A stretch of 64,000 nt of DNA. Origin: Thermoplasmata archaeon. GTDB lineage: Archaea; Thermoplasmatota; Thermoplasmata; RBG-16-68-12. This document shows positions 5,766 through 19,800 of the stretch, piece by piece. The notes under the pieces were generated by a model. It was not told the DNA's origin. It worked only from the letters and a program-made list of their open reading frames with translations, and made no database searches. The position numbers were made by a program, and so were the translations under genes. Every line of letters begins with the position of its first letter. Position 1 is the stretch's first letter. The DNA lies in the NCBI GenBank assembly GCA_035283405.1, contig DATEUA010000141.1, positions 8,984 to 72,983 on the forward strand, read 5' to 3'.

Positions 5766-6492
5766 CGCGGAGTGCGACGCCTGCGGCGCCGCGATGTCGA
5801 CGGGACCGAAGGCCTCGCCAGACGCGGAGGCCGTCCGCGAGTTCGCCTCCGTGCCCGGAATCTCGGAGGACCGGGCGAAACAACTCGTCGCGCGCGGTTA
5901 TCATGAGTTTTCCGACCTCGTGCGGCTCGCCCTCCCGAAGTCTGCGGTCGCGAAAGGCCTCCACCACGCGATCGCTCGCAGGGTGCTCCTTGCGGGGATC
6001 GGATCGAGGGAGGAGGCCGAGAAGGGCACCCCTTGCCCGTCGTGTGGCACCCCGTGGCCCGTGGCGGCGGAGCGCTGCCTCGTGTGCGGGGCCTCTCCGG
6101 ACGATGCCCTCGACGTGGAGTCCCTCGAGGAAAGGCTCCATGCGGTCACGGGCGAGATCGTGGACCTCACCGCGGACCCGGACTTCCAAGAGATGCCCTC
6201 CCGGGTGAAGGACGAACTCCTGCAGGTCTTCGGAGGGGTCGACGAGACGGAACTCCTGAAGGAAGACTGTCGCCGCCAGATCGAGGCGTGGCGCCGGAAG
6301 GGCTTCGACGTCGCGCCCCTCGAGCGGCTCCTCGAGGAGGATCCGCGGGGGTTCCAGGAGCGGAGCGTGAGGCTCATCCGCACTCAGATGCTGAAAAAAG
6401 CGGAAGGGGGCCGTTTCCGGTGCCCGCTGTGCGAGGTCGCCCTGCCCAGTGTCGCCCGGGAGTGCCCGAACTGCGGCGCGCTCTTCGAGTGA
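5545..6492 (+). CDS. Multi-zinc-ribbon protein with a helix-hairpin-helix-like segment
   Basis: There are four CxxC...CxxC zinc-ribbon units (for example CPRCHT...CPKCG and CPLCE...CPNCG) and a central HhH-like stretch (VPGISEDRAKQLVARGYHEFSDLV). The gene is divergent from the helicase. No confident family assignment. Confidence 0.45.
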   Translation: MKPCRRGDRESIPFGRITEGAVLSNEAPHRTAVASPCGVCGLATEEPVCPRCHTILRPDQAICPKCGKMFRGSIAECDACGAAMSTGPKASPDAEAVREFASVPGISEDRAKQLVARGYHEFSDLVRLALPKSAVAKGLHHAIARRVLLAGIGSREEAEKGTPCPSCGTPWPVAAERCLVCGASPDDALDVESLEERLHAVTGEIVDLTADPDFQEMPSRVKDELLQVFGGVDETELLKEDCRRQIEAWRRKGFDVAPLERLLEEDPRGFQERSVRLIRTQMLKKAEGGRFRCPLCEVALPSVARECPNCGALFE

Positions 6493-6541
6493 TAGCGGCG
6501 AGGGTAATCCTAAATACGGTCCGGGCCTCCCCCGGGCTGGC

Positions 6542-7258
6542 ATGCGCGGACGCTGGTCCGACTACGCGGCCCCGCCGGTCTACCTCACCCGCGAACCGCC
6601 GAGATCGGGCGTCCGGTTCAGCCGCGAGGAACTCCGCCAGCTCGCCGTCGCGATTCTCGCGCTGAGCGCCGCGATGACCCTCCTGATCGTGCTCGGATAC
6701 CAGCGGGAGGGCCTCCTCGACCCGGACGCCCTTCCACTTCTCGTCTCCGTCTCCTTCGCGACCTCCCTCGTCGCGGTGGCGACCGGGGTCGGACTCCACG
6801 AGATCGCGCACAAGGTGGTCGCCCAGCGATACGGACACTGGGCGGAGTTCCGCTACAATCCGATGGGGCTCGTCCTCGCGTTCGTCTTCGCGGCGGTCGG
6901 GTTCCTGTACGGCGCACCGGGGGCCACGTGGATCTCCGGCACGGTCACGGACGAACAGAACGGCCGGATCAGCGCGGCGGGCCCTCTGACGAACATCGTC
7001 CTGGGGGTGGGCTTCCTCGGGATCTTGACGACGCTCGGCACGGTCGTCACGCGGCCGGGGCTCGGGGACCTGGCGCGCGCGATCGTGAACTTCGCGACGT
7101 TCGTGAACCTCGTCCTCGCGGGGTTCAACATGATCCCCGTGATGCCGCTCGACGGGGCGAAGGTCTGGGCCTGGAACAAGGTCGCCTACGTCGGCATCTT
7201 GGTGACCGTCGTCGGATTGTTCATCCTCGGATTCGTCTCCGGGGTCCTCCGGGTCTGA
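6542..7258 (+). CDS. M50-family (site-2 protease-like) membrane metalloprotease
   Basis: HExxH motif (LHEIAHKVV) lies inside a TM helix and a downstream LDG motif (PVMPLDGAKVW) is present, in a polytopic membrane protein. Start taken at the ATG of MRGRWSDY. Confidence 0.6.
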   Translation: MRGRWSDYAAPPVYLTREPPRSGVRFSREELRQLAVAILALSAAMTLLIVLGYQREGLLDPDALPLLVSVSFATSLVAVATGVGLHEIAHKVVAQRYGHWAEFRYNPMGLVLAFVFAAVGFLYGAPGATWISGTVTDEQNGRISAAGPLTNIVLGVGFLGILTTLGTVVTRPGLGDLARAIVNFATFVNLVLAGFNMIPVMPLDGAKVWAWNKVAYVGILVTVVGLFILGFVSGVLRV

Positions 7259-7261
7259 GAC

Positions 7262-8008
7262 TCAGCGGTTCATCCGGGCCGCGAGGTAGCCCGCGCCGAA
7301 CCCATTGTCGATGTTCACGACCGCCACCCCGGGCGCACAGGACGTCATCATGCCGAGGAGGGCTGCGAGCCCGTCGAAGCTCGCCCCGTACCCGACGGAC
7401 GTGGGCACGGCGATTACGGGCGCGGCAACGAGACCCGCGACGACGCTGGGCAGGGCGCCCTCCATGCCCGCCACGACCACGATCGCCTTCGCCTTTCGGA
7501 GGAGGGCCCGACGGTCGAGCAGCCGATGGACTCCCGCCACGCCGACGTCGTACAGGCGAGAGACCTTGGCTCCCATGAGCCGTGCGGTGACGGCGGCCTC
7601 CTCCGCGACGGGGATGTCCGAGGTCCCCGCGGTTATCACGAGGATGTGTCCCGTCCGCGCGGCGGGGGCCTTCCCGACGGACACGATCCGCGCGTCCTCG
7701 TGATACGACATGGGCCGCCCTTTGATCGACGATCGCAGGCGACGGAAAATCGCAGGGGTCGCCCGGGTCGCAAGGACGAGTCCGTGGTGCACGCTCATCG
7801 CGCGGACGATCTCAACGACCTGATCGATCGACTTCCCCGGACAGTAGATGACCTCCGGGAAGCCGCGGCGCAGGTCTCGATGCCGATCGATCTTCGCGTA
7901 GCCCAGGTTTTCGTACGGGAGGTCTCTGAGCCGCTCGACCGCGTCGAGGACGCTCAGCTTCCCGGCCCTCAGGTCCGCCAGGACGGCCTTCACACGGCGC
8001 CCGTCCAT
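7262..8008 (-). CDS. larB: LarB-like / PurE-related carboxylase (nickel-pincer cofactor biosynthesis family)
   Basis: An N-terminal region ending in GFPEVIYCPGKS is followed by a PurE-like fold (ILVITAGTSDIPVAEEA and GVAGVHRL...). The length (248 aa) fits LarB. Confidence 0.5.
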   Translation of the reverse strand: MDGRRVKAVLADLRAGKLSVLDAVERLRDLPYENLGYAKIDRHRDLRRGFPEVIYCPGKSIDQVVEIVRAMSVHHGLVLATRATPAIFRRLRSSIKGRPMSYHEDARIVSVGKAPAARTGHILVITAGTSDIPVAEEAAVTARLMGAKVSRLYDVGVAGVHRLLDRRALLRKAKAIVVVAGMEGALPSVVAGLVAAPVIAVPTSVGYGASFDGLAALLGMMTSCAPGVAVVNIDNGFGAGYLAARMNR

Positions 8009-8015
8009 GCCCGCC

Positions 8016-9329
8016 TCACCGGATCTGTTCCCACTTCTCGAGCTCGAGGACGGAACTCAACGTGGCCCCCCGTCGAATCTCCTCCCGGATGCGGTTCTCC
8101 CGCTCGAGGACGTCGAGCGCGCGGTTCGCCATCTCGACGGCCTGTTCCCGAGGCACGACGACGAGTCCCGACTCGTCCCCGACGATCCAGTCCCCCGCGT
8201 GGACGACCTGACCTCCGCACTCGATCTCGCTCCCGATCTCTCCGTGTCCCTTCGGCTCGCCCGCGTGGGGCGCAACGTGTCGGCTGAAACATGGAAAACC
8301 GAGCTCGAGGATTGCGTCGAGGTCCCGCACGGCTCCGTCGATCACGACCCCGGACACGCCCTTCACGAGGCAAGAGTTGCTCGCGAGCTCCCCCCAGACC
8401 GCGGTCGGCCCTCCGCCCGCGTCGATCACGATCACGTCCCCGGGAGTTGCGCGGTCGATCGCCTCGATCGGTTTTGCCCAGTCCCCGTTCGCGGTCTTGA
8501 CCGTGAGTGCGCGCCCGACGAGCTTCGTCCCATGCTTCAGCCGAGGGACCAGGCCGTGGATCACGCCTCGTTTCTGCATCGCGTCCGCCAGGTTCGGGGT
8601 GGACACCTTTCGAAAGGCCTCGCGGACGTCGGGCTCCGAGTACTTCCGGAAAAGACGGGTCGGAACCGGTTTCCTCGCCGCGATGGCCTTCTTGATCCGC
8701 CTCGTCGCGTCCGCGACCTTCTCCGCCTTGATGATCGCGCCTCCGACGATGAGGATCGTCGCGCCGGCCTGGAGGGCCTGCGCCACCGTCTCCGAGTTCA
8801 ACCCGCCGGCCACAGCGATCGGGAGGGAGGTCGCTGCTGCGACCGCCTTCAGTTCGTTGAGGGGGGTCCGTGCGATCATCTGTTCGTCGATCGACACGTG
8901 GAGGTTCAGATAGTCCGCGCCGAGCTTTTCCAGTTGCAGGGCGCGCTTCGGTTTGTCCGCGACCCGCATCAGGTCGACCATGATTTTCGACCCATACCGC
9001 CGGGCCGCCTTGACCGCCTCGGCGATCGTCGCGTCGTCGGTGACGCCCATGACTGTGACGACGTCGGCCCCCGCCTTTGCCGCGATCTCGACCTCGAGAG
9101 CCCCCGTGTCCATCACCTTCAGGTCTGCGACGATCGTCCGCCCGGGGAGCGCCTTGCGAAGCGCGCGGATAGCCTCGACGCCCTCGGACTTGACGAGCGG
9201 CGTCCCCGCCTCGATCCAGTCCGCCCCGCCTTCGACCGCCTCCTTCGCGGCCTGAAGCGCCCGCTTGAGATGCATGAAATCCAACGCGACCTGCAGAATC
9301 GGTTCCATCGCGGACCGAGCTAACGTCAC
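8016..9329 (-). CDS. Bifunctional 3-hexulose-6-phosphate synthase (OMPDC-fold) fused to an RraA-like domain
   Basis: The N-terminal half (ILQVALDF...GADWIEAGTPL...GADVVTVMG...IAVAGGL) is HPS/KGPDC-like. The C-terminal half (PNLADAMQKRG...GDVIVIDAGG...AVWGELA...GVVIDGAVRD) is RraA/MenG-like. The fusion is known from archaeal reverse-RuMP pentose biosynthesis. Confidence 0.6.
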   Translation of the reverse strand: MTLARSAMEPILQVALDFMHLKRALQAAKEAVEGGADWIEAGTPLVKSEGVEAIRALRKALPGRTIVADLKVMDTGALEVEIAAKAGADVVTVMGVTDDATIAEAVKAARRYGSKIMVDLMRVADKPKRALQLEKLGADYLNLHVSIDEQMIARTPLNELKAVAAATSLPIAVAGGLNSETVAQALQAGATILIVGGAIIKAEKVADATRRIKKAIAARKPVPTRLFRKYSEPDVREAFRKVSTPNLADAMQKRGVIHGLVPRLKHGTKLVGRALTVKTANGDWAKPIEAIDRATPGDVIVIDAGGGPTAVWGELASNSCLVKGVSGVVIDGAVRDLDAILELGFPCFSRHVAPHAGEPKGHGEIGSEIECGGQVVHAGDWIVGDESGLVVVPREQAVEMANRALDVLERENRIREEIRRGATLSSVLELEKWEQIR

Positions 9330-9467
9330 CCTGTCGATAAAAACATATCGCGCGACGCCGGGGGGATTCGCGATGCGTCCGACCCATGACGGGCGGCCTC
9401 GTTTCAGAATTGATACTCGTCGCGGTCACCTCATATATCGAGGGTCCGGATAATTCGGACGACGAAG

Positions 9468-10241
9468 ATGCCCGCGAGGGGACCCGAGGACAATGGGAAT
9501 CGTGAGCGGTGCGCCACGGGCATCGAGGGGATCGACCACATCCTGAACGGCGGAATCCCGCGCGGGAACACGGTCCTCGTCGCCGGATCCGTCGGCACGG
9601 GGAAGACCTCGATCTGCATCGAGTTCCTCATCCACGGGGCCCTCAACGCGGAGAACTCCCTGTACATGAGCGTCACGGAGCCCAGCGCGAAGCTACTCCG
9701 AAACCTGATCCCGTTCGACTTCTTCGACGATCGCCTCGTGAAACAGGGAAAGCTCGCATTCGTGGACTTGCCAGGGATCTACGAGAGACTCGGCATCGAC
9801 GAGAAGGCAGAGTTCTCCTTCGACGAGATCAAGCGCCTCGTGGACGCGATTTCGGACCTCGTGGATAAGCACAACGTGAAGCGCTTCGTCCTCGACTCTG
9901 TGACTTCCGTGTCGTACCGGCTCGAGGATCGGGAGCTCATCCGGGAATTCCTCCTTCGGCTCGGGATGGTCCTGAGTGCGAAGAACTGCACGTCCCTCCT
10001 TGTGTCGGAGTTCACGGCGTCCGAAGTAGGATACTCGCGCCTCGGCGTCGCGGAGGCGATCACGGACGGAGTCATCGTCACGGGAAACCTGGAGCGCCGG
10101 GGGGACCTCCTGCGCACCTTGCAGGTCGTCAAGATGCGGGGGACCTCCCACAGCCGGGCGAAGTACGTCCTCGATCTCACGACGAGCGGAATCCTCCTCG
10201 TGCCGCTCCTGAAGGGCGGCAGCATTCCCGGAGGCGGATGA
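9468..10241 (+). CDS. KaiC-like RecA-superfamily ATPase (single domain)
   Basis: GIEGIDHILNGGIPRGNTVLVAGSVGTGKTS (Walker A) and the Walker B-like RFVLDSV are present. A TATA-like catatatcg lies about 30 nt upstream. Confidence 0.7.
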   Translation: MPARGPEDNGNRERCATGIEGIDHILNGGIPRGNTVLVAGSVGTGKTSICIEFLIHGALNAENSLYMSVTEPSAKLLRNLIPFDFFDDRLVKQGKLAFVDLPGIYERLGIDEKAEFSFDEIKRLVDAISDLVDKHNVKRFVLDSVTSVSYRLEDRELIREFLLRLGMVLSAKNCTSLLVSEFTASEVGYSRLGVAEAITDGVIVTGNLERRGDLLRTLQVVKMRGTSHSRAKYVLDLTTSGILLVPLLKGGSIPGGG

Positions 10242-10242
10242 C

Positions 10243-10830
10243 GTGACCGTCACGAGGGAAATCGCGGACAAACTGTCCGCGCTCCCGGAGGCCTCTGCGG
10301 TCTCCCTCCGGCTCGGAACGGACCAGTACTTCGACGCGATCCAAGGGATGCTCGACGTGTTCGCTTCGAAGAACAATCTGGAGGTCTTCTACATCACCTC
10401 GACGATCCCGTCGCAGAGCATCATCAACGCTCTCGAGGTCCTCGAGATCCCCCTCGACCGCATCTGGTTCGTCGACTGCATCAGCCAGATCATGATGTCC
10501 GCCGCGAAGCGGCACACGCATTCGATCGTCGTCGAAAGCCCCACGATGCTCGAGAATCTCATGCTGAAGATCGAGTTCCTGATGCGGAAGCATCCGGAAC
10601 GGAAGGCCCTCGTGGTCTTGGACTCGATCAATTCCCTCGCGATCCACAACAACACGAAGATTCTCAGCGAATTCCTGCACATCTTCGTGAACAATCTACG
10701 CTCCCACGGGGCGTACACAGTGATCTTCTCGATGCAGGAGTACGAGACGGATGAGATTCGTAACATGCTCGTAATCGTCTGCGACGAGACCCTCGAACTG
10801 GGGCACGACCTGAAAGCCCTCGCAGAGTGA
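10243..10830 (+). CDS. KaiC-like paralog lacking a P-loop (probably non-catalytic partner)
   Basis: It sits 1 nt after the upstream KaiC-like gene and has a RecA-like core (KALVVLDSINSLA, Walker B-like) but no GxxxxGKT/S. Local GC is clearly lower than the flanks. Confidence 0.4.
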   Translation: MTVTREIADKLSALPEASAVSLRLGTDQYFDAIQGMLDVFASKNNLEVFYITSTIPSQSIINALEVLEIPLDRIWFVDCISQIMMSAAKRHTHSIVVESPTMLENLMLKIEFLMRKHPERKALVVLDSINSLAIHNNTKILSEFLHIFVNNLRSHGAYTVIFSMQEYETDEIRNMLVIVCDETLELGHDLKALAE

Positions 10831-10979
10831 GAGGTCGTCGGGCGTACGGTCGGCAGGCCCCCGCACCCCTGATTCTCAGCACGGGGAATACACGATTCGT
10901 TCCCTGCTTCAGGGAATCGTTCTCAGGGGGGAGCGGCCGCCGCGCTACCTTTACGCCCTACGAGTCCAACGTCATTCAT

Positions 10980-10993
10980 GCGGCGAAAGCCGC
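10980..10993 (+). promoter_or_regulatory. Conserved 5'-leader hairpin (GCGGC-GAAA-GCCGC, GNRA tetraloop) followed by GGAAGGA and the pilin-1 ATG
   Basis: The same 33-nt leader (gcggcgaaagccgcaggaaggacaaaaccATG) occurs upstream of both pilin paralogs. Confidence 0.5.
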
Positions 10994-11008
10994 AGGAAGG
11001 ACAAAACC

Positions 11009-11464
11009 ATGAGTGCCCTCATCCGGAAGGATGAGCTGGCGGTGTCTCCCGTGATTGCGACGATTTTGATGGTCGCGATCACGGTGGTGCTCGCCGCGGT
11101 GCTGTACGTCATGGTGTCGGGCCTGATTGCCCCACCCGGACTACCGCCGCAGGCGATGGGAGTGAGCATCACCCGTTCCGCGGACGGGACGAACTGGACC
11201 GTCGTGATCGCCCACGTGCCGGTGGGCCTGACGGCGTCCGGGACGACCCTCTCCGTCCAGAACACCGGTGGTGCGATCGCCCTGGCAGCCACGGCGTTTG
11301 AGAGCCTCGCGTACGCGTCCGACGGAGCCGTCTACATCGGCGACGGCGATGCGACGGTCGAGGCCGCCGAACGGCTGCTCATCAGCACCGCGACGTACCC
11401 GACGGGGTACCGTGTGGAGATTTCCGACGGCCGGAACCTCCTCTACGCAGGGAACCTCCAGTAG
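11009..11464 (+). CDS. Archaeal type IV pilin-like protein with a class III signal peptide (Pilin_N type)
   Basis: The N-terminus RKDELAVSPVIATILMVAITVVLAAVLYVMVSG is the hallmark archaeal prepilin signal with a hydrophobic helix. An NWT sequon is present. Confidence 0.75.
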   Translation: MSALIRKDELAVSPVIATILMVAITVVLAAVLYVMVSGLIAPPGLPPQAMGVSITRSADGTNWTVVIAHVPVGLTASGTTLSVQNTGGAIALAATAFESLAYASDGAVYIGDGDATVEAAERLLISTATYPTGYRVEISDGRNLLYAGNLQ

Positions 11465-11505
11465 TCAGGCCGCCTGAACCCTCTTCCCTTTTTTCTTTTT
11501 CTTCG
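11465..11505 (+). terminator. Pyrimidine/T-rich tract downstream of pilin 1 (archaeal oligo-T terminator)
   Basis: ccctcttcccttttttctttttcttcg follows the stop codon immediately. Confidence 0.45.
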
Positions 11506-11727
11506 CGGTGGAGCGGTGGGAATCGCACCGTCATCGTGCGATGACCATCGCGCAGAATCAGAGTCCGGCCAGGGCTCCGAGGCTGCGAGGACCGCCCCCC
11601 GGCGTCGTCATCAGGCGTGATTCCCACGGGAGAGAACTTGATCCGGACGACAACGCTCAAAGAGTCGTTCTCAAATCAGAAAAATCACCGCGAAACGTTT
11701 ATCCCCGTCTCTCCCCCCCTCCTCCAG

Positions 11728-11741
11728 GCGGCGAAAGCCGC
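11728..11741 (+). promoter_or_regulatory. Second copy of the leader hairpin GCGGC-GAAA-GCCGC before pilin 2, with an upstream TATA-like aacgtttat near 11693
   Basis: The leader is identical to 10980-10993. The ATG is at 11757. Confidence 0.5.
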
Positions 11742-11756
11742 AGGAAGGACAAAACC

Positions 11757-12212
11757 ATGAAAGCCATCATCCGAAAGGATGAGCAGGCGGTGTCCCCCGT
11801 GATTGCGACCATCCTGATGGTCGCCATTACGGTGGTGCTCGCCGCGGTGTTGTACGTCATGGTCTCCGGCCTTTTGGTCGGACCAGGCGGCGGCCCGCGG
11901 TCGATGGGCATCAGCATCAGCCGCTCCGCGGATGGTACGAACTGGACCCTCGTGATCGCATCGTCCCCAACGGGACTCACGACGTCCGGGACGAGCCTTA
12001 CCATCCTGAATGCGGGCGGTGCGATTGCCCTAGCATCTGAGGCGTTCAGCAGCCTCGCGTATGCGTCCGACAGAGCAGTCTACATCGGCGACGCCGACAC
12101 GACGGTCGAAGCCTCAGAGCGGCTGCTCGTCAGCACCAGCACCTACCCGACCGGATTCCGCGCTGAGATCTCGGACGGCGCGGGTCTCCTGTTCTCTGGA
12201 ACCCTCCAGTAA
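11757..12212 (+). CDS. Archaeal type IV pilin-like protein, tandem paralog of 11009..11464
   Basis: MKAIIRKDEQAVSPVIATILMVAITVVLAAVLYVMVSG has the same class III signal. It is collinear over its whole length with the upstream paralog (same SADGTNWT sequon and ...LLxSTxTYPTGxRxEISDG...LQ C-terminus). Confidence 0.75.
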   Translation: MKAIIRKDEQAVSPVIATILMVAITVVLAAVLYVMVSGLLVGPGGGPRSMGISISRSADGTNWTLVIASSPTGLTTSGTSLTILNAGGAIALASEAFSSLAYASDRAVYIGDADTTVEASERLLVSTSTYPTGFRAEISDGAGLLFSGTLQ

Positions 12213-12351
12213 GCAGGCGCTGCGAACCTACTTCCCTTTTTCCTTTCTTCTTTCCCTTTCTTCAGCGCACGAACGCTCTCGACACAAGCCGACCCGGCCC
12301 GACCTTGCCTTTATGTTCCCCACGCGGTTAAGGCGCGCGGAGGCGACCCCC

Positions 12352-12789
12352 ATGCCATCCGTGGACGTTGCCGTGGTCTACGCGGACGGGGGTTCCCGAG
12401 GAAACCCGGGCCCCTCGGCGATCGGGGTGGTCGTCGCCGACGAACGAGGGACCGTCCTGCTCGAGCACAAGGAATCGATCGGTCGCGGGACGAACAACGA
12501 AGCCGAATACCGCGCGATCGCCACGGGCCTTGACCTTGCCGGCCGATTCACGCGAAAGGACGTTCGATGCGTCTCCGACAGCGAGCTCGCGGTTCGACAG
12601 CTCACCGGACGGTACGGCCTCGATAGCCCCGGGCTCCAACCTCTGTTCCACCGGGTCAAGCGGCTCGAACGCACGTTCCATCGTGTGAGCTATGAGAGCC
12701 GCCCCCGGCTCACCGGCCTTCTTCGCAGGGCGGACGAACTCGTGAACGAAGCGCTCGACGAGGAGGCCTCCGCGAATCGCCGCGTCTGA
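12352..12789 (+). CDS. rnhA: Ribonuclease HI (type 1 RNase H)
   Basis: The DEDD-type motifs are in order: VYADGGSRGNPGPSAIGVV, TNNEAEYRAIATGL and VRCVSDSELAV. Confidence 0.7.
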   Translation: MPSVDVAVVYADGGSRGNPGPSAIGVVVADERGTVLLEHKESIGRGTNNEAEYRAIATGLDLAGRFTRKDVRCVSDSELAVRQLTGRYGLDSPGLQPLFHRVKRLERTFHRVSYESRPRLTGLLRRADELVNEALDEEASANRRV

Positions 12790-13046
12790 GACGGATCTCG
12801 TAGTCCGGCGCGACGACCGTTGGATTCTCGATGAGACATCCCAGCCGTCGGCCGCCGGTCGGTAGGCCTCGGGCGCGTGGAACCGGCGATGCGGCGGCCC
12901 GCAGTCCACGGCCATCTGGGGTCGGGGCGCGGTTTGCCCGCCACACCAAGTCGAGTGCAGAACTGAGCACGCTCGCAGATTGCCGAGTCCGGAAAGCTTG
13001 ATGGCGTTCCCCGCTGTTCCCTGACCGAACGCTCGGAGAGGCTTCC

Positions 13047-14888
13047 GTGGAGGAACGCGACCGTCGTCCACCGTTCGGCCTGATTCTCGCGGTCGCCGTC
13101 CTGTCGCAAGGTCTTGTCATCACGACCGCCCCGTCCGCAGCGATCCTCCTGGCGCACGACGTCGCGGACACGGAAGGAGTCGCATGGGATCACGGAGTCG
13201 ACCGAGGCCCGGGAACACCGGCCCCCACCGCGAGCGGGGATGGATTCCTTCGCGTCACGACGGGCATCGACCTCCATCCGGAAAGCGGGGTGCCCGGGAA
13301 GATCCTCGTCGACGGAGTCCCTCGGGACGAATGGGGTCTGACGTGGCTGAAGATGGATCCCGGGGCGCACGTCGTCTCCTTCTTGGACGTCCCGGGACTC
13401 GACACCCCGGGCCCCACGGAGGTGACGGTCACCGCAGGGGAGACGTCCTCCGTCGTGGGCGAGTATCGCGCGAGGGGCTGGCTGCGGGTCCTCACGGACC
13501 CTTCGGTTCCCGGGACGATCTCTGTGGACGGGATCCCGCGAAACGATTGGGGCATGTGGATGGCCATACGACCCGGAACCTACAGCGTCTCGTTCGGTGC
13601 CGTTGCGGGGTACCGTCCGCCGGAGCCCATCCCTGTCGAGGTCTTTGCGGATCGGCAGACGACGGTCACCGGGGCGTACGCGCGGGACGACGCGTTTCCG
13701 GGACCGGATCCGGCGACGTTCGGGCTGCTCCGCGTCGAGACGGCCCTTGACGACGGTCGGCCTGGGGTGATGACCCAGATTCTCCTCGACGGAGCGCCGC
13801 GGGACGAGTGGGGGCTCACCTGGGTCAAAGTCCCCCCGGGTACGTACACGCTTTCCGTGACGGACGTGCCGGGCCTCGGGACTCCCGAGGATCAGACCGT
13901 GAGCATCGCTGCGGGTGCAACGACCGTCGTACGGGCAGTCTTCCAGCGCCTCGGCTCGCTGCGCATCCTGACGGATCCGCCCACGCCTGCGACCGTCTCC
14001 GTGGACGGGGTCCGACGGAACGACTGGGGGATGTGGATGTCCGTGCCGCCGGGGACGTACGACGTTTCGTTCGAATCGCTCGTGGATCTTCCCGCGCCCA
14101 CTCCTCAGCGCGTCGCGGTCGCCGCAGGCGAACTCACGCAGGTCGCAGGTTCGTCTGCCCAGCCTGAACGTTCGCTGAACTGGGCGGGATACATCGTCGC
14201 GAGTGACTTCGACCGGCCCGAGCCCATCGTGGATTCCGCGCGTGGCTCCTGGATCGTCCCCGAGGTGCCCCTGACGGAGGACACGAGGTACTCGTCTGTC
14301 TGGGTCGGCATCGGCGGATTCTTTTTCGGGGATCTTTCGCTGATCCAGATCGGGACGGAGGCGGACAGCTCGCGCCTCGAGACCCTGTACGCCGCATGGT
14401 TCGAGCTCCTTCCGGATCCGGCGATCCGGATCACGGACCGCATGACATCGTGCCCATCCGAGACGAACTCGCACGTCTGCGTCGTGAGGCCCGGCGACTT
14501 GATCGACGCGTCCGTCGACCTGGTCGATCCTGCGCAGAATCGATGGACGCTGTCCCTCTCCGACCTCACCCAGGGCTGGCGATTCGACCTCACGACGGGC
14601 TACGCCTCGTCTCGCCTATCCGCGGAGTGGATCGTCGAGCGACCGGTCGTGTGTCGCCCGCAGTTCTGCTACCTGACGAATCTCCCGCTGTTTGGCACGG
14701 CGAGCCTCGGATCCGATGCGACAGGGATTGCCGGCACGAACGTGGCGACGATCGGCGGATTCCGCGCCCCGCTGGGCGCGTTCGCGCGGCGTGAGATCAT
14801 CATGCACGCGTCGGTCACCGTAGTCCTTGCGGATCCGTCGCCGGTCAGCCTGAGCGGGACGAGCTTCTCCGTGCTGCGAATCACGTGA
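13047..14888 (+). CDS. Secreted protein with four PEGA-type repeats and a C-terminal peptidase G1 (eqolisin, glutamic peptidase) domain
   Basis: A signal/TM sequence (FGLILAVAVLSQGLVITTAP) starts the protein. Four repeats of about 95 aa follow (LRVxT...PGxIxVDGxPRxxWGxW...PGTYxVSF), which is PEGA-like. The C-terminal domain reads NWAGYIV...SWIVPEV...SSVWVGIGG...LIQIGTE...YAAWFELLPD...AEWIVERP. That matches the eqolisin layout, with putative catalytic Gln in IQIGT and Glu in EWIVE. The start is GTG. Confidence 0.55.
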   Translation: MEERDRRPPFGLILAVAVLSQGLVITTAPSAAILLAHDVADTEGVAWDHGVDRGPGTPAPTASGDGFLRVTTGIDLHPESGVPGKILVDGVPRDEWGLTWLKMDPGAHVVSFLDVPGLDTPGPTEVTVTAGETSSVVGEYRARGWLRVLTDPSVPGTISVDGIPRNDWGMWMAIRPGTYSVSFGAVAGYRPPEPIPVEVFADRQTTVTGAYARDDAFPGPDPATFGLLRVETALDDGRPGVMTQILLDGAPRDEWGLTWVKVPPGTYTLSVTDVPGLGTPEDQTVSIAAGATTVVRAVFQRLGSLRILTDPPTPATVSVDGVRRNDWGMWMSVPPGTYDVSFESLVDLPAPTPQRVAVAAGELTQVAGSSAQPERSLNWAGYIVASDFDRPEPIVDSARGSWIVPEVPLTEDTRYSSVWVGIGGFFFGDLSLIQIGTEADSSRLETLYAAWFELLPDPAIRITDRMTSCPSETNSHVCVVRPGDLIDASVDLVDPAQNRWTLSLSDLTQGWRFDLTTGYASSRLSAEWIVERPVVCRPQFCYLTNLPLFGTASLGSDATGIAGTNVATIGGFRAPLGAFARREIIMHASVTVVLADPSPVSLSGTSFSVLRIT

Positions 14889-14961
14889 GGGCGCGGCCCC
14901 TCCAGCTACCCAGGCGTCCAAGAGGGATCGAGATTGCGTCTCGGGAGCATGAAGCGGGCGC

Positions 14962-15216
14962 CTACCACGTCCACTTGAACTCTTCGATCGGGAGGGCCAG
15001 GGACGTCGTCGTCTCTGCGACCCGGCCGAACTGGACCATGAAATCCGCCGCGGTGGACGGGTCTGGCGCCTCGAAGATGACGAGGGCATCGGGGTTGCCG
15101 AGGAGGCCCAGGAACTCGTGGACCACGACTTTGTTCGGAAGCTTCGGGTGCCTGAACACCCGAGTCGCCTCCTCGAGTTGTCCCGGGATGACCTTCAACT
15201 GGGTGACGAACAGCAT
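14962..15216 (-). CDS. Small GYD-domain-like protein
   Basis: It is 84 aa with MLFVTQLKV...LGNPDALVIFEAPD...VQFGRVAETTT, the pattern of GYD-family proteins with G-x-D in place of GYD. Confidence 0.35.
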   Translation of the reverse strand: MLFVTQLKVIPGQLEEATRVFRHPKLPNKVVVHEFLGLLGNPDALVIFEAPDPSTAADFMVQFGRVAETTTSLALPIEEFKWTW

Positions 15217-15264
15217 AGGCTCACGACGGCGTCCGCATCCCGCGGCCTCTTATTTAACCGTTGG

Positions 15265-15738
15265 TCATCGCGGCCCGGTCTGCGCCGAGTCCCAGCGGTG
15301 CACACGCACATGCACCAACGAAGACTGCGCGACCGTCGTCCCGAGGACCTTGTCGGACCAGCGCTGCCTCGGATCGCCCTCGACGATCAGCCCTGCGAGG
15401 ACGTCGATGAACGGGAAGGCGAACCAAAAGAGCTTCGGGAAGTTCCGCACGGCCGCCTTTGAGAAGGTCATTGGACCCCGCACGGAGCGGACCTCGAGGC
15501 CCGCGATGTACTTTCCGACCGTCGTCCGCAGGAACGCCTCCGCGAGGGTCGAGTACGTGTACAACACGACCCCGCCCCAGAGCCCGTAGACGATCGGCTG
15601 CCTCTGGCCCAGGTAGTACAGGAAGATCCAGAGGGGGGCGAAGACGAACGCGAGGTCGATCGCGAATCCGATGAACCTCCGGAGCCAGTGGATCTGGAAC
15701 GTCCGGTTCCGGCCCAGGAGGTCGAGGCCGTTCACCAT
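15265..15738 (-). CDS. RDD-family membrane protein
   Basis: HWLRRFIGFAIDLAF carries the R..D..D signature before a hydrophobic segment. A TATA-like ttttatag lies about 30 nt upstream at 15768-15778 on the minus strand. Confidence 0.55.
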   Translation of the reverse strand: MVNGLDLLGRNRTFQIHWLRRFIGFAIDLAFVFAPLWIFLYYLGQRQPIVYGLWGGVVLYTYSTLAEAFLRTTVGKYIAGLEVRSVRGPMTFSKAAVRNFPKLFWFAFPFIDVLAGLIVEGDPRQRWSDKVLGTTVAQSSLVHVRVHRWDSAQTGPR

Positions 15739-15877
15739 GAGTGCATCCCGGGCGTCTTGATGGACCTCTCGCTATAAAAATGTCTGGACCCGACCGACGG
15801 ATTGACAATCGTGGCCACTCAGATCGCCCATCATTCATCACGGATCAGCATCGGTTGCATCATCACGGTGGCGTTCC

Positions 15878-16459
15878 GTGCGTACGGCGCCCGGAGGCAT
15901 CAGGTTTGCGCCCCCGCCCCCCATCCTTAATGGCATCCCATCGGGATGCCCGGCCGTGGCCCGCGTCCGGCTCCTCGTGTACGACGCGAAGCAATGCGAT
16001 CCGAAGCGGTGCACCGCCCGCAAGCTGAGGCGGTTCGGGCTCGTCGTATTCGTCCCGAGACCGAGTGCCCTGCCGCGGGGAGCCATCCTCCTCCGGCCGG
16101 ACGCGACACGGGCCCTGTCCCCCGAGGACGCGCCCGCCGCGGAACGCCATGGCCTCGCGGTCCTCGACGCGTCCTGGCGGGCGGCGGCGTTCCCGCGAGT
16201 CTCACGAGGCGTGGCCCGCGCGTTGCCCTACCTCCTCGCGGCGAACCCCGTGAACTACGGGAAGCCCTTCACCCTCTCGAGCGCGGAGGCGTTCGCGGCG
16301 GCCCTCGTCATCATGGGCCACGAGGACGAAGGGAAGGCCGTCCTCTCGAAGTTCGCGTGGGGGGACCAGTTCCTCGTCCTGAACAGACAGCCCTTGGACG
16401 CGTACCGCGCGGCCGCCGACAGCTCGGAGGTCGTGAAGGCCCAGGCGCTCTTCATTTGA
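15878..16459 (+). CDS. tsr3: Tsr3-like 16S rRNA aminocarboxypropyltransferase (DUF367)
   Basis: LLVYDAKQCDPKRCTARKL...ANPVNYGKPF...SSAEAFAAAL matches the Tsr3 core. The true start is probably downstream of 15878, with the core beginning near 15960. Confidence 0.55.
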   Translation: MRTAPGGIRFAPPPPILNGIPSGCPAVARVRLLVYDAKQCDPKRCTARKLRRFGLVVFVPRPSALPRGAILLRPDATRALSPEDAPAAERHGLAVLDASWRAAAFPRVSRGVARALPYLLAANPVNYGKPFTLSSAEAFAAALVIMGHEDEGKAVLSKFAWGDQFLVLNRQPLDAYRAAADSSEVVKAQALFI

Positions 16460-16640
16460 AGTCGGGCGGGAGAAGGTCCGGAATCCCGTCCTTGATCTCG
16501 TACCGGTGGTTGCACGACTTGCAGTACAGGGTCCCTTCGAGGATCTCGTCCTTCTCGACCTGCACCGAGAGCTCGAGATCGCCCTTGCACACGGGGCAGC
16601 ACAGGATCTCCATCAGGTCGCGCTTCATCGAGGCGGACAA
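16452..16640 (-). CDS. Trm112-like zinc-ribbon protein (DUF343)
   Basis: LMEILCCPVCKGDL...LYCKSCNHRYEIKDGIPDLL matches the family pattern. Confidence 0.6.
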   Translation of the reverse strand: MSASMKRDLMEILCCPVCKGDLELSVQVEKDEILEGTLYCKSCNHRYEIKDGIPDLLPPDFK

Positions 16641-16810: not shown

Positions 16811-19800
16811 GTGGATGAGGGTCGTTCTTGGCTTCGTACCCATTGGCGGACAGCCCTCGCCCTTGCCTTGGTCTTCGGGATCGCCCTCTTCCTGCGCTTC
16901 TACTTCGTCTACGGCCTCGCCTTCACGAACCTGCAACAGACGTGCGCGGGCGGCTCGGGGCTCCCCGTGTCGGGCGGGTCCGACTCCTTCTACTGGCATC
17001 GCGCCCTCTGCTACTCGTTCGAGACAGGGAAAGACAAAACCTTCGATCCGATGCTGAATTACGGGCCGGGGCTCTTCAATCCGCGCCCGCCCCTCTTCCC
17101 GTGGTTCTCCCTCCTCGTGGGCCAGCTCCTCGCGCCGCTGTTCGCCAGCCCGTGGCAGGCGGTCCTGTTCACGTTCCTCGCCTCGACGGGCCTGTTCGGC
17201 GCCCTGACCGTCTTCCCGACGTACGCCCTCACGAAGGAGGCGTTCGGCCGGAGGGCGGGTCTCGTCGCCGCATTCCTGTTCGCCGTGAGTTCGGCGCACA
17301 TGCAACGGAGCCAGGCGACGGATGCGGACCACGACGCCCTGACCCTGTTCTTCGTCGTCTCGACGTTCTACTTCTTCCTCCGGGGCCTGCGGACGATGAA
17401 GCCCCGCCGGTGGGTCGAGACCTGGTTCCGCCGGGAGGCGATCCTCGCCGGGACGAAGGCGTTCTTCCGGGAGAACCGGCCGTCCGTCCTGTACGCTCTC
17501 CTCGCGGGCTTGTGCATCGCGGTGATCGCTCTGTCCTGGCAGGGGTGGGCCTACGTCCCCGTGATCCTGCTCGTGTACTTCGTCGTCCAGCTGTTCCTCG
17601 ACCGGGTGAGGAGCCAGGACACGATGGGCGTCACGATCCTCTTCACGATCTCCCTCCTCGTCCCCCTCGTCGTCGCGTTCCCGTGGTACGCGAGCCGCTT
17701 CCAGATCCGCGTGTGGTACGACGTGCCCGCGTACCTGTTCCTCGTCGCTGCGGTCCTCGGCATCGTGTTCACGGTCACGCGGGACTACCCGTGGACCCTC
17801 GTGATCCCCGCGACCTTCGCCGGCGGCGGAGTGACGCTCGGGCTCCTCGTCCTCGTGAACCCCGCCCTCGCGAGCGCGTTCGTGAGCGGCGCGGGGTACT
17901 TCGTCCAGACGAAGGTATACGAGACGATCGCGGAGGCCCAAGCCCCCGGGCTTTCACAGCTCATCCTCAGCTTCGGGTTCTTCACCTTCTACTTCAGCAT
18001 CGCGGGCGTCGCGTACATGCTCTGGCTCATCCCCCGCCGGCACGAGGCCTCCTACACGCTGATCGTCGTGTGGACCTTCGCCGCGATCTTCATGGCGATG
18101 GCCGCCGCGCGATTCATCTTCAACGCGTCCCCCGCGTTCGCGGTCGCCGCCGCATTCGCGGTCGACCTGGTCCTGACCCGGGCCGACTTCACGGGGATGC
18201 GCCGCACCTATCGCTCCCTGGCGCAGGGGAGCTGGCGGAACGCGCTTCGGAAGAGCCTCAAGCTGCGTCACGTCCTGACGGGCCTCGTCCTCGTCGGGGT
18301 GGTCCTCCTCCCGAACGTGTACTGGGGGATCGACTCGGGGATCCCTTTCGAGCTCAAGTCCCAGTATGACCGCCAGCTGAACGAGGTTCTGCCTTCGTTC
18401 CTCCGGGCCCCCGGCTATACGGACGGCCGGAGTTTCTACTTCGGGGCCTTCGGGTACTCGATCCCTCAGCCGACGGAGTACTTCCCCGCGGCGTGGTCCT
18501 GGTTCCGGGCCCAGGACGCGGACCGGCCGCCCGAACAACGGCCGGCTTTCCTGTCGTGGTGGGACTACGGCTTCGAGGCCGTCGACCGGGGCCGGCACCC
18601 GACCGTCGCGGACAACTTCCAGAACGGGTTCAACTTCGCGGGTCAGTTCATCACGGCCCAGGACGAGGCCCAGGCGGTGGCCCTCCTCGCGATCCGGTCC
18701 CTCGAGGGCGACTTCCGGCGGAACCGCGGGGTGTTCAGCGGGGCGACGGAGCGCGTGCTCGAGTCGTTCGCGATGCCGAAGGACGACTTCGCCCGCGGGA
18801 TCGCCCGCCCGCAGGACCTGATCCCTCTCGTCCGGGCGAATCCGGAGACGTACGGACGATGGGACGCGGAAATGCAGCCCTTCAACGCCATGTACATCTT
18901 CCTCGCGAATCAGATCACGGTCCGGCTGGACGCCGCGCGGATCGCGGACTTCTACCACGCGGTGCGGACCGCGACGGGGATCGACATCGGCTACTTCGCG
19001 GTCGACTCGAGGCTCTTCCCCATCAGTGCGTCGAACACGGGGATCTTCTATGCGCCCGTGAAGCTGGCGGACCACCGCGTCGTCGAGCTGCCGGACGGCC
19101 GGACCCTCCCGACGGAGTTCTTCAAGATCTTCGTCGACACGGACCGAGGCACCCACATCGCCCTCGAGGACCTCCAGCCGGGGGACCGGGTGTCGAGCCA
19201 GTCGATCGAATACCAGCCCATGTTCTACGACTCCATGTTCTACCGGGCGTACGTCGGGTACGAGCCGTCGGAGGTCGGGGTCCCGAACGACAAGGGGATC
19301 CCGGGCTTCACCCAGACGATGGTCAACTTCCCGCCCCACCCCGCGTGGAACCTCTCCCACTTCCGCGTCGTGTACCGGACCGCGTACTACAATCCGTTCC
19401 CGGACCCGGGGAACCACACGGACGCGTGGCGAGCGATCAACTTCGACGAGGGCGGGCGGTTCCAGGAAGAGATCGGCGCAGGGACCCGGACGGGCGTCGT
19501 GGACCTGAGCACCCAGGCCACGACGACCAACGGGATCGTGTTCCTCCGCTACTACGACGGCGCCTGGGTCAACGGCACGGTCCTCGCAGGGGGCGCCACG
19601 CCGGTGTCCGGCGTGCGCGTGACCGTGACCGACGAGCTGGGGACCCCGCACGACACCGCGACGTCGGACGCCTCAGGCCGATACAGCGTCCTGGTTCCCT
19701 TCGGCAACGTCACCCTGTCGGCCTCCGTCGGCCAGGTCGCGCCCGGGAGCCTCGTAGGGAGCCGCCTCCTCGGGTCGACGACGTTCCCCGTGAGCCTCGC

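Follow-up and report, generated by a model that had tools for sequence, protein, structure and literature searches.

A conserved hairpin leader of archaeal type IV pilin genes and its possible role at the 5' end of the mRNA

Two pilin genes stand in direct repeat in a 64,000-nucleotide stretch of DNA from a Thermoplasmata archaeon (the window), and both are preceded by the same short leader, in which a hairpin abuts a ribosome-binding-like site. The locus raises the question of whether this leader is a leftover of the duplication or an mRNA element under selection, and what such an element would do. To our knowledge, few conserved cis-acting mRNA structures have been described in archaea, and next to nothing is known of how archaeal type IV pilins are controlled after transcription. 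The two genes were as follows.

11009..11464, + strand: pilin gene 1, 151 aa, archaeal type IV pilin (Pfam PF07790, TIGR02537, N-W-T sequon)
11757..12212, + strand: pilin gene 2, 151 aa (Pfam PF07790, TIGR02537, N-W-T sequon)

The products of genes 1 and 2 scored 38.6 and 34.1 bits against Pfam Pilin_N PF07790 (gathering cut-off 25.2) and 38.5 and 50.2 bits against TIGR02537 (cut-off 20). Profile searches found relatives among solved filament structures, namely 8gi2 (Natrinema PilA2, 3.7e-10), 8fj5, 9myg and 8rey (residues 12-117), and a protein recorded as 'type IV pilin [Thermoplasmata archaeon]' was 100% identical to the product of gene 1. Scores above cut-off and homology to structurally solved pilins assign both genes, on sequence grounds, to the archaeal type IV pilin family. 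An earlier note on this DNA had described class-III-signal pilin genes in direct repeat, each with an NWT sequon. The model matches, a repeat period of 748 nt (indel-free from about 10909 to 11498) and an N-W-T in both proteins agreed with this description, but the two pilins proved 75% identical in protein rather than the roughly 80% it had given. DNA identity between the repeat copies was 76-85%, depending on segment. No further pilin genes or copies of the leader motif were found elsewhere in the 64-kb window, and a scan of 17 window ORFs near the pilins gave no pilus-assembly gene of the PilB/PilC type. The conserved neighbours of pilin loci are KaiC-like ATPases, which are not known RNA binders.

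Each leader consists of a hairpin (HP1) followed by a Shine-Dalgarno (SD)-like block and an A-rich spacer.

10980..10993, + strand: HP1 copy 1, GCGGC-GAAA-GCCGC, predicted mRNA 5' terminus (fold; covariance model (CM) match 49.4 bits; family covariation)
11728..11741, + strand: HP1 copy 2 (CM match 48.0 bits)
10994..11008, + strand: SD-like AGGAAGGAC and A-rich spacer AAAACC, copy 1 (unpaired in MFE and consensus folds)
11742..11756, + strand: SD-like AGGAAGGAC and spacer, copy 2 (leader identity, fold)

The window contained just two copies of the 32-nt sequence GCGGCGAAAGCCGCAGGAAGGACAAAACCATG (10980-11011 and 11728-11759), and the identity claimed earlier extended over 33 nt overall; no occurrence was expected in shuffled window sequence. 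The 5-bp stem with a GAAA loop that had been noticed beside the RBS-like GGAAGGA folded with all 5 bp at -9.2 kcal/mol. Folding of the leader RNA, a check proposed at the same time, left the SD and the AUG unpaired, and no alternative pairing of the leader with the SD was predicted.

Such identity between paralogous leaders could be a functionless by-product of recent duplication or gene conversion. Leaders were identical between paralogues in several genomes (the window, L017, L018, L043 and L065), and in the relative L171 both paralogous leaders shared one derived A-to-C change, so that either gene conversion or a trans-acting partner contributes to identity within a genome. However, the copies in the window agreed at 29/29 leader positions, against 64% of 4-fold-degenerate sites, 46% of the 26-nt spacer from the TATA box to the hairpin and 53% of positions -110 to -56. 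The chance of a 29/29 match at the neutral rate was about 2e-6. The earlier note had named the neutral flanks as the comparison on which its reading would stand or fall, and their divergence favours selection. Its statement that the spacer had diverged applied to the stretch between TATA box and hairpin; it did not apply to the promoter as a whole, where a BRE/TATA-like element and the motif GTTCTCA were kept at equal spacing. The same tandem pair was present in a syntenic relative. The pair is older than a species split and, given the 64% identity at 4-fold sites beside the 29/29 leader match, is not a recent duplication. The motif was also conserved, with compensatory changes, between loci that share as little as 35-60% pilin identity. 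We therefore give next to no credence to a functionless by-product, and duplication or gene conversion as the sole explanation was refuted by the family-wide matches, the covariation and the neutral-site divergence. Same-species population variants (L161-L170), with identities of 99.5% or more, were uninformative on constraint; the only SNP near the leader among them was 11727 G>C, just outside the stem.

A search for the leader motif in other genomes, which had also been proposed, found the hairpin and SD before pilin genes in about 145 loci. We searched both strands of 596 kb of Thermoplasmata and Methanomassiliicoccales DNA with the covariance model and obtained 146 matches, all of them on the pilin strand. 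All except one (145/146) lay directly upstream of a pilin ORF and ended at its start codon. The matches came from various species of the Thermoplasmata and Methanomassiliicoccales and from metagenomes; leaders of Methanomassiliicoccales relatives read GUAGG-GNRA-CCUAC. Within the 64-kb window, searched with filters off, the two pilin leaders stood alone at 49 and 48 bits, the next match reaching 9 bits.

Every HP1 stem cell (100%) was paired in the CM alignment, which covered 63 distinct leaders, compared with 15-75% in slid controls. Three of the five pairs showed compensatory changes (CG/UA/UG; AU/GC/GU; GC/CG/AU/UA), pairs 1 and 4 were invariant G-C, and G-U was tolerated (UG in 5 sequences, GU in 6). 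The covariation score was 0.544 versus 0.226 ± 0.021 in shuffles, a comparison to be read with the fitting of the alignment to the model and the inflation of shuffle-based statistics by sequence kinship in mind. A first MAFFT alignment (A3, 37 leaders) had misaligned stems of unequal length and was superseded by an 18-sequence seed (A4) and the CM-based alignment. The same HP1 was recovered by a structure-blind hairpin finder and by RNAalifold on a plain MAFFT alignment. Structure rather than sequence was thus conserved, though two pairs did not vary.

Stem length ranged from 5 to 8 bp and loop length from 3 to 10 nt across the family. A tetraloop was present in 87 of 122 distinct leaders and was of the GNRA type in 66 of these 87, an enrichment seen on the sense strand only; variants included GAAA, GCAA, GUAA, AAAA and AUGU as well as loops of 5-10 nt. 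The GNRA loop described earlier is therefore correct for both window copies (GAAA) but holds for only about half of the family. Following the hairpin, GGAGG/GAC was conserved across family leaders and the GAC after the SD was nearly invariant. HP1 ended 0-3 nt before (A)GGAGG in most leaders, and in some lineages the SD core lay 3-4 nt from the stem (AGUGAGGAC, AGCGAGGAC). No 16S rRNA was found in the window or in the collected loci. The compensatory stem changes over about 145 loci bear out the earlier proposal of a selected cis-acting RNA element, and together these sequence comparisons show that the leader is a real, pilin-specific mRNA element and not a duplication remnant.

A second hairpin (HP2), which the earlier note had missed, lies within the coding region.

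11018..11035, + strand: HP2 copy 1, CTCATCC-GGAA-GGATGAG, codons 4-9 (L-I-R-K-D-E) (fold, family covariation)
11767..11782, + strand: HP2 copy 2, TCATCC-GAAA-GGATGA (fold, family covariation)

HP2 was located 9-18 nt after the start codon and covaried in the family, with Ile ATC paired to Asp GAT and Val GTC to Asp GAC. It is a clean example of RNA structure limiting synonymous codon and amino-acid choice together.

The boundaries of the transcription units were read from the following elements.

10919..10925, + strand: conserved motif GTTCTCA, copy 1, candidate transcription-factor site (equal position in copy 2 and relatives)
11667..11673, + strand: conserved motif GTTCTCA, copy 2, candidate transcription-factor site (equal position in copy 1)
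10941..10956, + strand: BRE/TATA-like element of pilin gene 1, CGCGCTAC-CTTTACGC (TTTA 30 nt before the first stem G)
11691..11704, + strand: BRE/TATA-like element of pilin gene 2, CGAAAC-GTTTATCC (TTTA 30 nt before HP1)
11465..11504, + strand: gene 1, 3' region with a short hairpin (TCAGG-ccg-CCTGA) ahead of a C/T tract containing T6 and T5, putative oligo-U terminator (sequence, homologue enrichment)
12213..12263, + strand: gene 2, 3' region with a hairpin (GCAG-gcg-CTGC) ahead of a C/T tract containing T5, putative terminator (sequence, homologue enrichment)

The position of GTTCTCA was kept in relatives L001, L002, L017-L019 and L171B. A further TTCTCA was found at 10873-10878; the window held 14 TTCTCA sites, 4 of them within 10661-11673 and 3 of these 4 in pilin upstream regions. 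Over the 63 distinct homologous leaders the AT fraction peaked at 0.95-0.98 at -30/-29, and TTTA began 30-33 nt before the first stem G in 52 of the 63. The dinucleotide at -1/+1 was TG in 54 of 122 leaders, which fits the archaeal Inr, T(A/G) (PMC7289017). Among pilin genes no more than 60 nt behind another pilin gene, 0/23 carried HP1, whereas 127/185 free-standing genes did (Fisher 4e-11). The operon-internal genes kept the SD, and HP2 was also kept in the close paralogues inspected (L020, L125). With TATA at a fixed distance of about 31 nt and HP1 absent from operon-internal cistrons, HP1 most likely forms the 5' terminus of the primary transcript, a position that favours mRNA protection over processing. 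The transcription start, as read from promoter geometry, may lie a few nucleotides off or elsewhere. Contig ends were considered as a stand-in for transcript ends and set aside as having no evidence value, only one contig (L115) beginning at the hairpin. The neighbouring genes had TATA-like boxes only about 30-40 nt before their start codons and so look leaderless or short-leadered.

Poly-U termination has been described in archaea (PMC7289017), and Haloferax pilin transcripts have 3' ends at poly(U) stretches (bioRxiv 10.1101/2019.12.18.880849). The T-rich terminators reported in the earlier note were present after both stop codons (T6 and T5 at 11489-11500, T5 at 12237-12241), so that both pilin genes have the oligo-T soon after the stop codon that marks archaeal intrinsic terminators. 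Of 177 homologous genes, 77 had a T5+ run no more than 80 nt from the stop, compared with 3.2% of random windows.

We propose, with moderate confidence and from sequence comparison, that HP1 stabilises the mRNA from its 5' terminus and that HP1 and HP2 together frame an open landing pad for SD and AUG, each pilin gene having its own transcription unit. Each unit would carry a dedicated structured 29-nt leader. Transcription from the BRE/TATA promoter would start no more than about 3 nt from the first G in the 5-8-bp HP1, usually with a stable tetraloop, so that the 5' end of the message would be base-paired. A strong SD, the A-rich spacer, the start codon and then HP2, 9-18 nt into the coding sequence, would follow, and an oligo-U tract would end the transcript. 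HP1 would shield the 5' end against RNase J or aCPSF2-type 5'-to-3' exonucleases and so prolong the life of a message that encodes an abundant secreted filament subunit. Between them, the two hairpins would flank a single-stranded segment of about 30 nt with the SD and the AUG, which in this GC-rich genome would keep the ribosome-binding site open and the start site fixed. HP2 would need a role apart from 5'-end protection, because internal cistrons keep it. We infer these effects on mRNA stability and translation; for stabilisation there are bacterial precedents. In bacterial mRNAs, 5' secondary structure stabilises against RNase E/RppH, and in Bacillus a 5' hairpin or a near-5' ribosome-binding site stabilises downstream mRNA against RNase J, an activity of which RNase J-like forms occur in all archaea (PMC3997798, which also lists the ompA, papA pilin and aprE leader studies). 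The 5'-end-dependent nucleases need an unpaired 5' end (PMC3997798 and its refs 92-95).

The hairpins might instead act on translation initiation only, which we hold to be unlikely. HP1 would lie against the SD:anti-SD helix or stack on it, and HP2 would help to keep the initiation region unstructured, so that initiation would be boosted and fixed, weak non-AUG start codons included, and mRNA decay would be unaffected. The short distance from HP1 to (A)GGAGG in most leaders, the open SD and AUG in both single-sequence and consensus folds, the GTG, TTG, CTG or ACG starts found in relatives at canonical distance from the SD, and the placing of HP2 just past the start codon, also in internal cistrons, would all suit such a role. 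However, HP1 was absent from all 23 internal genes despite their SD, and it therefore tracks the transcript end and not the ribosome-binding site, while the wider spacing in some lineages speaks against strict adjacency. Since adjacency is not universal, coaxial stacking of HP1 on the SD helix was not retained as a stand-alone reading but kept within this one. A role in translation is compatible with the stabiliser role, and the two are not mutually exclusive. That the palindrome is a DNA operator, bound by a dimeric transcription factor and overlapping the transcription start, would suit its fixed TATA distance and the G/C invariant at two positions per arm, but is very improbable, because covarying rather than conserved arms, a loop of 3-10 nt, tolerated G-U (G-T) pairs and sense-strand GNRA enrichment are features of RNA.

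Both hairpins could also be sites for a pilin-specific trans-acting regulator, protein or small RNA, that gates translation next to the SD and AUG and, for example, couples synthesis to assembly or secretion; we consider this clearly unlikely. The invariant pairs 1 and 4 and the near-invariant GAC exceed the needs of a purely structural shield and hint at a specific partner. Covariation elsewhere in the stem beside these fixed pairs and the GGAGGAC block, the strictly pilin-only association, the two hairpins flanking the start site at short range, the persistence of HP2 in internal cistrons and the shared substitution in the L171 leaders, as expected with a common partner, point the same way. 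Against it, loop sequence and length and stem sequence vary widely, which is unusual for a sequence-specific protein site, the loops are enriched for thermodynamically stable GNRA types, pilin cistrons without HP1 inside operons would escape control, and the conserved neighbours offer no candidate. A fuller version, in which HP1, the SD block and HP2 form a pilin-mRNA control module read by an archaeal trans-acting factor, so that translation or the survival of the mRNA follows the state of pilus assembly or secretion, seems rather improbable. If true, it would parallel in archaea the flagellin CsrA/FliW checkpoint and be the first gene-family-specific post-transcriptional regulon described in Thermoplasmata.

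The pilin leader is so far uncatalogued. A scan of the window against Rfam 15 at gathering level gave one match, a tRNA, and a scan of 10900-12300 at E<=10 gave nothing meaningful. Our literature search found no published leader hairpins of pilins or Thermoplasmata, and the hairpin was not among the motifs of a 104-motif survey. A riboswitch or other ligand-sensing leader was rejected: the leader has 29 nt, one 5-8-bp hairpin with a variable loop and no predicted alternative SD pairing, and does not form a multi-helix aptamer. The element is short, very specific and widespread (about 145 instances in Thermoplasmata and Methanomassiliicoccales), with clear covariation support, and it stands out because neighbouring genes appear leaderless. 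It offers a ready test case for whether 5'-terminal pairing protects archaeal mRNAs from RNase J/aCPSF2-type decay, as in bacteria. The organisms carrying it are uncultured MAGs, in which an HP1 leader can show which pilin gene is promoter-proximal, and probably major, and at which codon it truly starts, non-AUG starts included.

Several known systems resemble parts of this arrangement. Archaeal BRE/TATA promoters and oligo-U terminators share with it the A-rich BRE, the TTTA(T/A)(A/G) box, the T-G initiator and T5-T6 after the stop (PMC7289017), but they account for the boundaries of the unit and not for the hairpin leader. The Bacillus subtilis hag (flagellin) leader, under CsrA/FliW, is likewise a filament-subunit leader with a hairpin site and an SD site and would couple synthesis to assembly; the loops here vary and are not GGA motifs, so the analogy is functional only. 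CsrA is, as far as we know, missing from archaea. [quoted passage not shown] These stabilisers are bacterial, are not gene-family-specific and have no counterpart of the covarying HP2 inside the coding sequence; for these pilin loci, Rfam 15 catalogues no archaeal example of this type. In the E. coli ompA (5' UTR hp1) and papA mRNAs, as predicted here, a short hairpin lies at the 5' terminus of a message that encodes an abundant envelope or filament protein, and papA too is a pilin message, that of the P-pilus major pilin. They are bacterial, act against RNase E/RppH, have longer leaders and show no sequence relationship, and the papA 5' end is a product of papBA processing, whereas the pilin genes here have their own TATA at a fixed distance. 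The stabilising effect is established for ompA and papA, and for the pilin leader we propose it.

The two tandem pilin genes both encode 151-aa ORFs that match TIGR02537 and score above the gathering cut-off of Pfam Pilin_N. The pilin family profile also matched solved archaeal pilins (8gi2, 8fj5, 9myg, 8rey), and the gene 1 protein was 100% identical to the NCBI entry 'type IV pilin [Thermoplasmata archaeon]'. Both genes lie in a direct repeat, as the earlier note had proposed; the repeat has a period of 748 nt and no indels. The note's figure of about 80% identity did not hold for the protein (75%; DNA 76-85% by segment).

Features of the pilin genes and their leaders (HP, hairpin)
10919-10925 and 11667-11673, + strand: GTTCTCA motif, about 25 nt before each TATA box (a further TTCTCA at 10873-10878)
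10980-10993 and 11728-11741, + strand: HP1, directly 5' of the Shine-Dalgarno-like element (SD)
11009-11464, + strand: pilin gene 1
11018-11035, + strand: HP2 copy 1, CTCATCC-GGAA-GGATGAG, folding of gene 1 codons 4-9
11465-11477, + strand: short hairpin TCAGG-ccg-CCTGA, between gene 1 stop codon and C/T tract
11757-12212, + strand: pilin gene 2
11767-11782, + strand: HP2 copy 2, TCATCC-GAAA-GGATGA, folding of gene 2 codons 4-9
12213-12223, + strand: short hairpin GCAG-gcg-CTGC, between gene 2 stop codon and C/T tract

The leader GCGGCGAAAGCCGCAGGAAGGACAAAACCATG occurred exactly twice, with starts at 10980 and 11728, and the suggested folding returned a 5-bp hairpin with a GAAA loop (-9.2 kcal/mol) that left the SD and AUG unpaired. 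All 29 leader positions before the ATG were identical between the copies (29/29), versus 46% identity over the 26 nt from TATA to hairpin, 53% from -110 to -56 and 64% at 4-fold-degenerate sites of the two genes. The leader was therefore kept while the spacer diverged, as previously claimed, and the flanks were not equally identical; a mere duplication remnant is effectively excluded. L171, a syntenic relative, showed the same gene order as the window (KaiC-like ATPase, 195-aa gene, pilin A, pilin B, RNase H), and more distant relatives carried only one pilin in this neighbourhood. Since L171 shares the tandem pair and neutral sites are 46-64% identical, the duplication is of sufficient age for divergence at neutral positions. 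The two L171 leaders (1244-1272 and 1972-2000) were identical to each other and differed from window 10980-11008 and 11728-11756 at one shared position only, with C in place of A at -6 in both copies (GACCAAACC), despite retained 1-to-A and 2-to-B orthology of the coding regions. This shared change indicates that some concerted evolution, or a shared constraint, acts within genomes: the cause is a gene-conversion tract of very small size or else co-variation of both leaders with one partner.

We collected 160 loci by scanning GTDB species representatives and JGI metagenomes under protein guidance. When these were inspected with no structure model imposed, most pilin genes carried a hairpin just 5' of (A)GGAGG-GAC-A-rich-ATG, with stems such as GCGGC/GCCGC, GCAGG/CCUGC, GUAGG/CCUAC, GGGCC/GGUCC and AGCCC/GGGCU, among others. 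A covariance model (CM) seeded with 18 leaders and run with filters off singled out the two pilin leaders from the whole window (49.4 and 48.0 bits; next match 9.4 bits, E=0.62). A search of both strands over 596 kb of loci gave 146 matches, all on the pilin strand; 141 had a class-III-signal ORF directly downstream by automatic verification, 4 more preceded pilin ORFs with CTG or ACG in the start position, and the remaining weak match (E=0.56) is likely a false positive. The search of other genomes proposed earlier thus placed 145 matches before pilin ORFs.

In the CM alignment, which is biased towards its own model though structure-blind analyses agree with it, 100% of HP1 stem cells paired, with compensatory changes in 3 of 5 pairs; slid controls paired in 15-75% of cells. 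The covariation score was 0.544 versus 0.226 ± 0.021 in shuffles (0/500), and the shuffle statistics, here and for HP2, are inflated by relatedness of the sequences. For 35 close relatives in a plain MAFFT alignment, RNAalifold predicted exactly HP1 and HP2, with SD and AUG open. HP1 stems were 5-8 bp long, and tetraloops were found in 87 of 122 distinct leaders (66 of the 87 GNRA), making loop composition a property of the sense-strand RNA. The compensatory changes and the occurrence of the leader before 145 pilin ORFs support the earlier view of a cis-acting RNA element; a DNA operator is effectively excluded, as the stem arms covary and the GNRA loops lie on the sense strand.

For 63 distinct upstream regions, the first stem G of HP1 served as the anchor of an alignment. 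The consensus showed an A-rich BRE and a TTTA(T/A)(A/G) box (AT fraction 0.95-0.98 at -30/-29), with TTTA starting 30-33 nt upstream of that G in 52 regions. Archaeal TATA boxes are usually centred about 26-27 bp before the transcription start, so that transcription should start on the first stem G or no more than about 3 nt away from it; the spacing is observed, the exact site inferred. These BRE/TATA elements are as described for archaeal promoters, and TG at -1/+1, present in 54 of 122 distinct leaders, fits the archaeal Inr T(A/G) (PMC7289017). HP1 was present in 127 of 185 free-standing pilin genes and in none of 23 located ≤60 nt downstream of another pilin gene (Fisher 4e-11). These internal genes retained the SD and, at least in the inspected close paralogues L020 and L125, HP2. 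Because HP1 is absent there although the SD is kept, it appears to track the transcript 5' end rather than the ribosome-binding site. In L115, a 1018-nt metagenome contig, position 1 was exactly the first G of HP1, possibly by chance or through an assembly break at the hairpin. On inspection, most genes of the neighbourhood (window 3603-16628, gene calls from L176), among them eight non-pilin genes, lacked an SD and had a TATA-like box as close as about 30-40 nt to the start codon. Such genes look leaderless or carry a short leader, and the pilin leader is therefore a special addition.

HP2 occupies the codons for [L/I]-I-R-K-D-E. We aligned 101 distinct N-termini, anchored on codons, without gaps and blind to structure; in this alignment 79% of cells paired versus 71% in shuffles, and the covariation score was 0.196 versus 0.090 ± 0.008 (0/500; slid controls 0.04-0.08). 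The clearest signal in these codons is an amino-acid change coupled to a synonymous change: Ile ATC occurred with Asp GAT 68 times and Val GTC with Asp GAC 10 times, against 3 ATC + GAC and 0 GTC + GAT (Fisher 1.5e-10). The Val/GAC class spanned at least 8 different N-terminal contexts. Of 71 sequences with Ile (ATC), 68 had GAT at the Asp codon; elsewhere in the same genes GAT made up 20% (GAC 252, GAT 62). Further pairings were GTT with AAC, ATT with AAT and TTC with GAA. HP2 was restricted to the [IV]-R-K-D-type subfamily and missing in AT-rich lineages.

The terminators noted earlier after both genes were present as C/T tracts with T5-T6 runs, and 77 of 177 homologues had a T5+ run in the 80 nt that follow the stop codon, versus 3.2% of random windows. 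Such runs fit both oligo-U termination in archaea (PMC7289017) and the way a Haloferax pilin transcript behaves (bioRxiv 10.1101/2019.12.18.880849). The post-stop hairpins, replaced in relatives by GAGGGCC-nnnn-GGCCCTC, may be 3'-end protective or terminator-assisting structures.

GTTCTCA, also kept in L001, L002, L017-L019 and L171, may be a transcription-factor site of the pilin promoter; its reverse complement GAGAA(C/T) lay about 13 nt upstream of TATA in L007-L010, L065, L068 and L078. GTG, TTG, CTG and even ACG replaced the window's ATG at canonical SD distance in relatives (L171 at 1273; L007, L009, L010, L039, L051, L071, L078, L129, L155; L004, L008; L026, L048). This suggests that initiation is SD-driven and tolerates a weak start codon, and that some of these pilins are mis-started by gene callers.

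Neighbouring genes
9468-10241: KaiC-like ATPase, upstream of pilin
10243-10830: degenerate KaiC-like gene, 195 aa, directly upstream of pilin
13047-14888: Peptidase_A4 and CarboxypepD_reg-like repeat protein, 613 aa, secreted-looking, downstream of the pilins and RNase H gene
16811-23305: AglB/STT3 oligosaccharyltransferase fused to many CarboxypepD_reg-like repeats, 2164 aa

The KaiC-like pair with pilin recurred in L171, L174 and L175 (single-copy pilin in the latter two) and may have a functional tie to the pilus; we know of no RNA-binding role for it. The AglB/STT3 fusion, which L175 and L176 also carry close to the pilin, is of interest because of the pilin N-W-T sequon. Some relatives have N-W-[IV] or N-F-I at that position, so glycosylation of this Asn is not universal.

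All of the evidence is computational and comes from MAGs. With structure conservation, pilin specificity and absence from internal cistrons observed, we somewhat favour a 5'-terminal protective hairpin combined with a strong SD: HP1 at the mRNA 5' terminus would shield the message from 5'-end-dependent decay, the SD would be joined directly to it, and HP2 would bound the far side of an open landing pad of about 30 nt. Effects on half-life and translation are the inferred steps. That the leader hairpins act on translation only is unlikely. A pilin-specific trans-acting regulator reading the leader would suit the two invariant G-C pairs of HP1, the concerted A-to-C change in L171 and a GGAGGAC block that hardly varies, and we regard it as likewise unlikely.

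The leader region matched no Rfam family and we found no description of such a pilin leader in the literature searched; the covarying, pilin-specific, class-wide archaeal leader with a coding-region partner hairpin is absent from both. As a kind of element, the 5' stem-loop leader is already known in bacteria. Bacillus messages are guarded against RNase J by a 5' hairpin or by a ribosome-binding site close to the 5' end, and RNase J-like enzymes occur in all archaea (PMC3997798). The protective reading has its direct bacterial precedent in the ompA and papA pilin mRNAs, where 5' secondary structure blocks 5'-end-dependent decay (PMC3997798).
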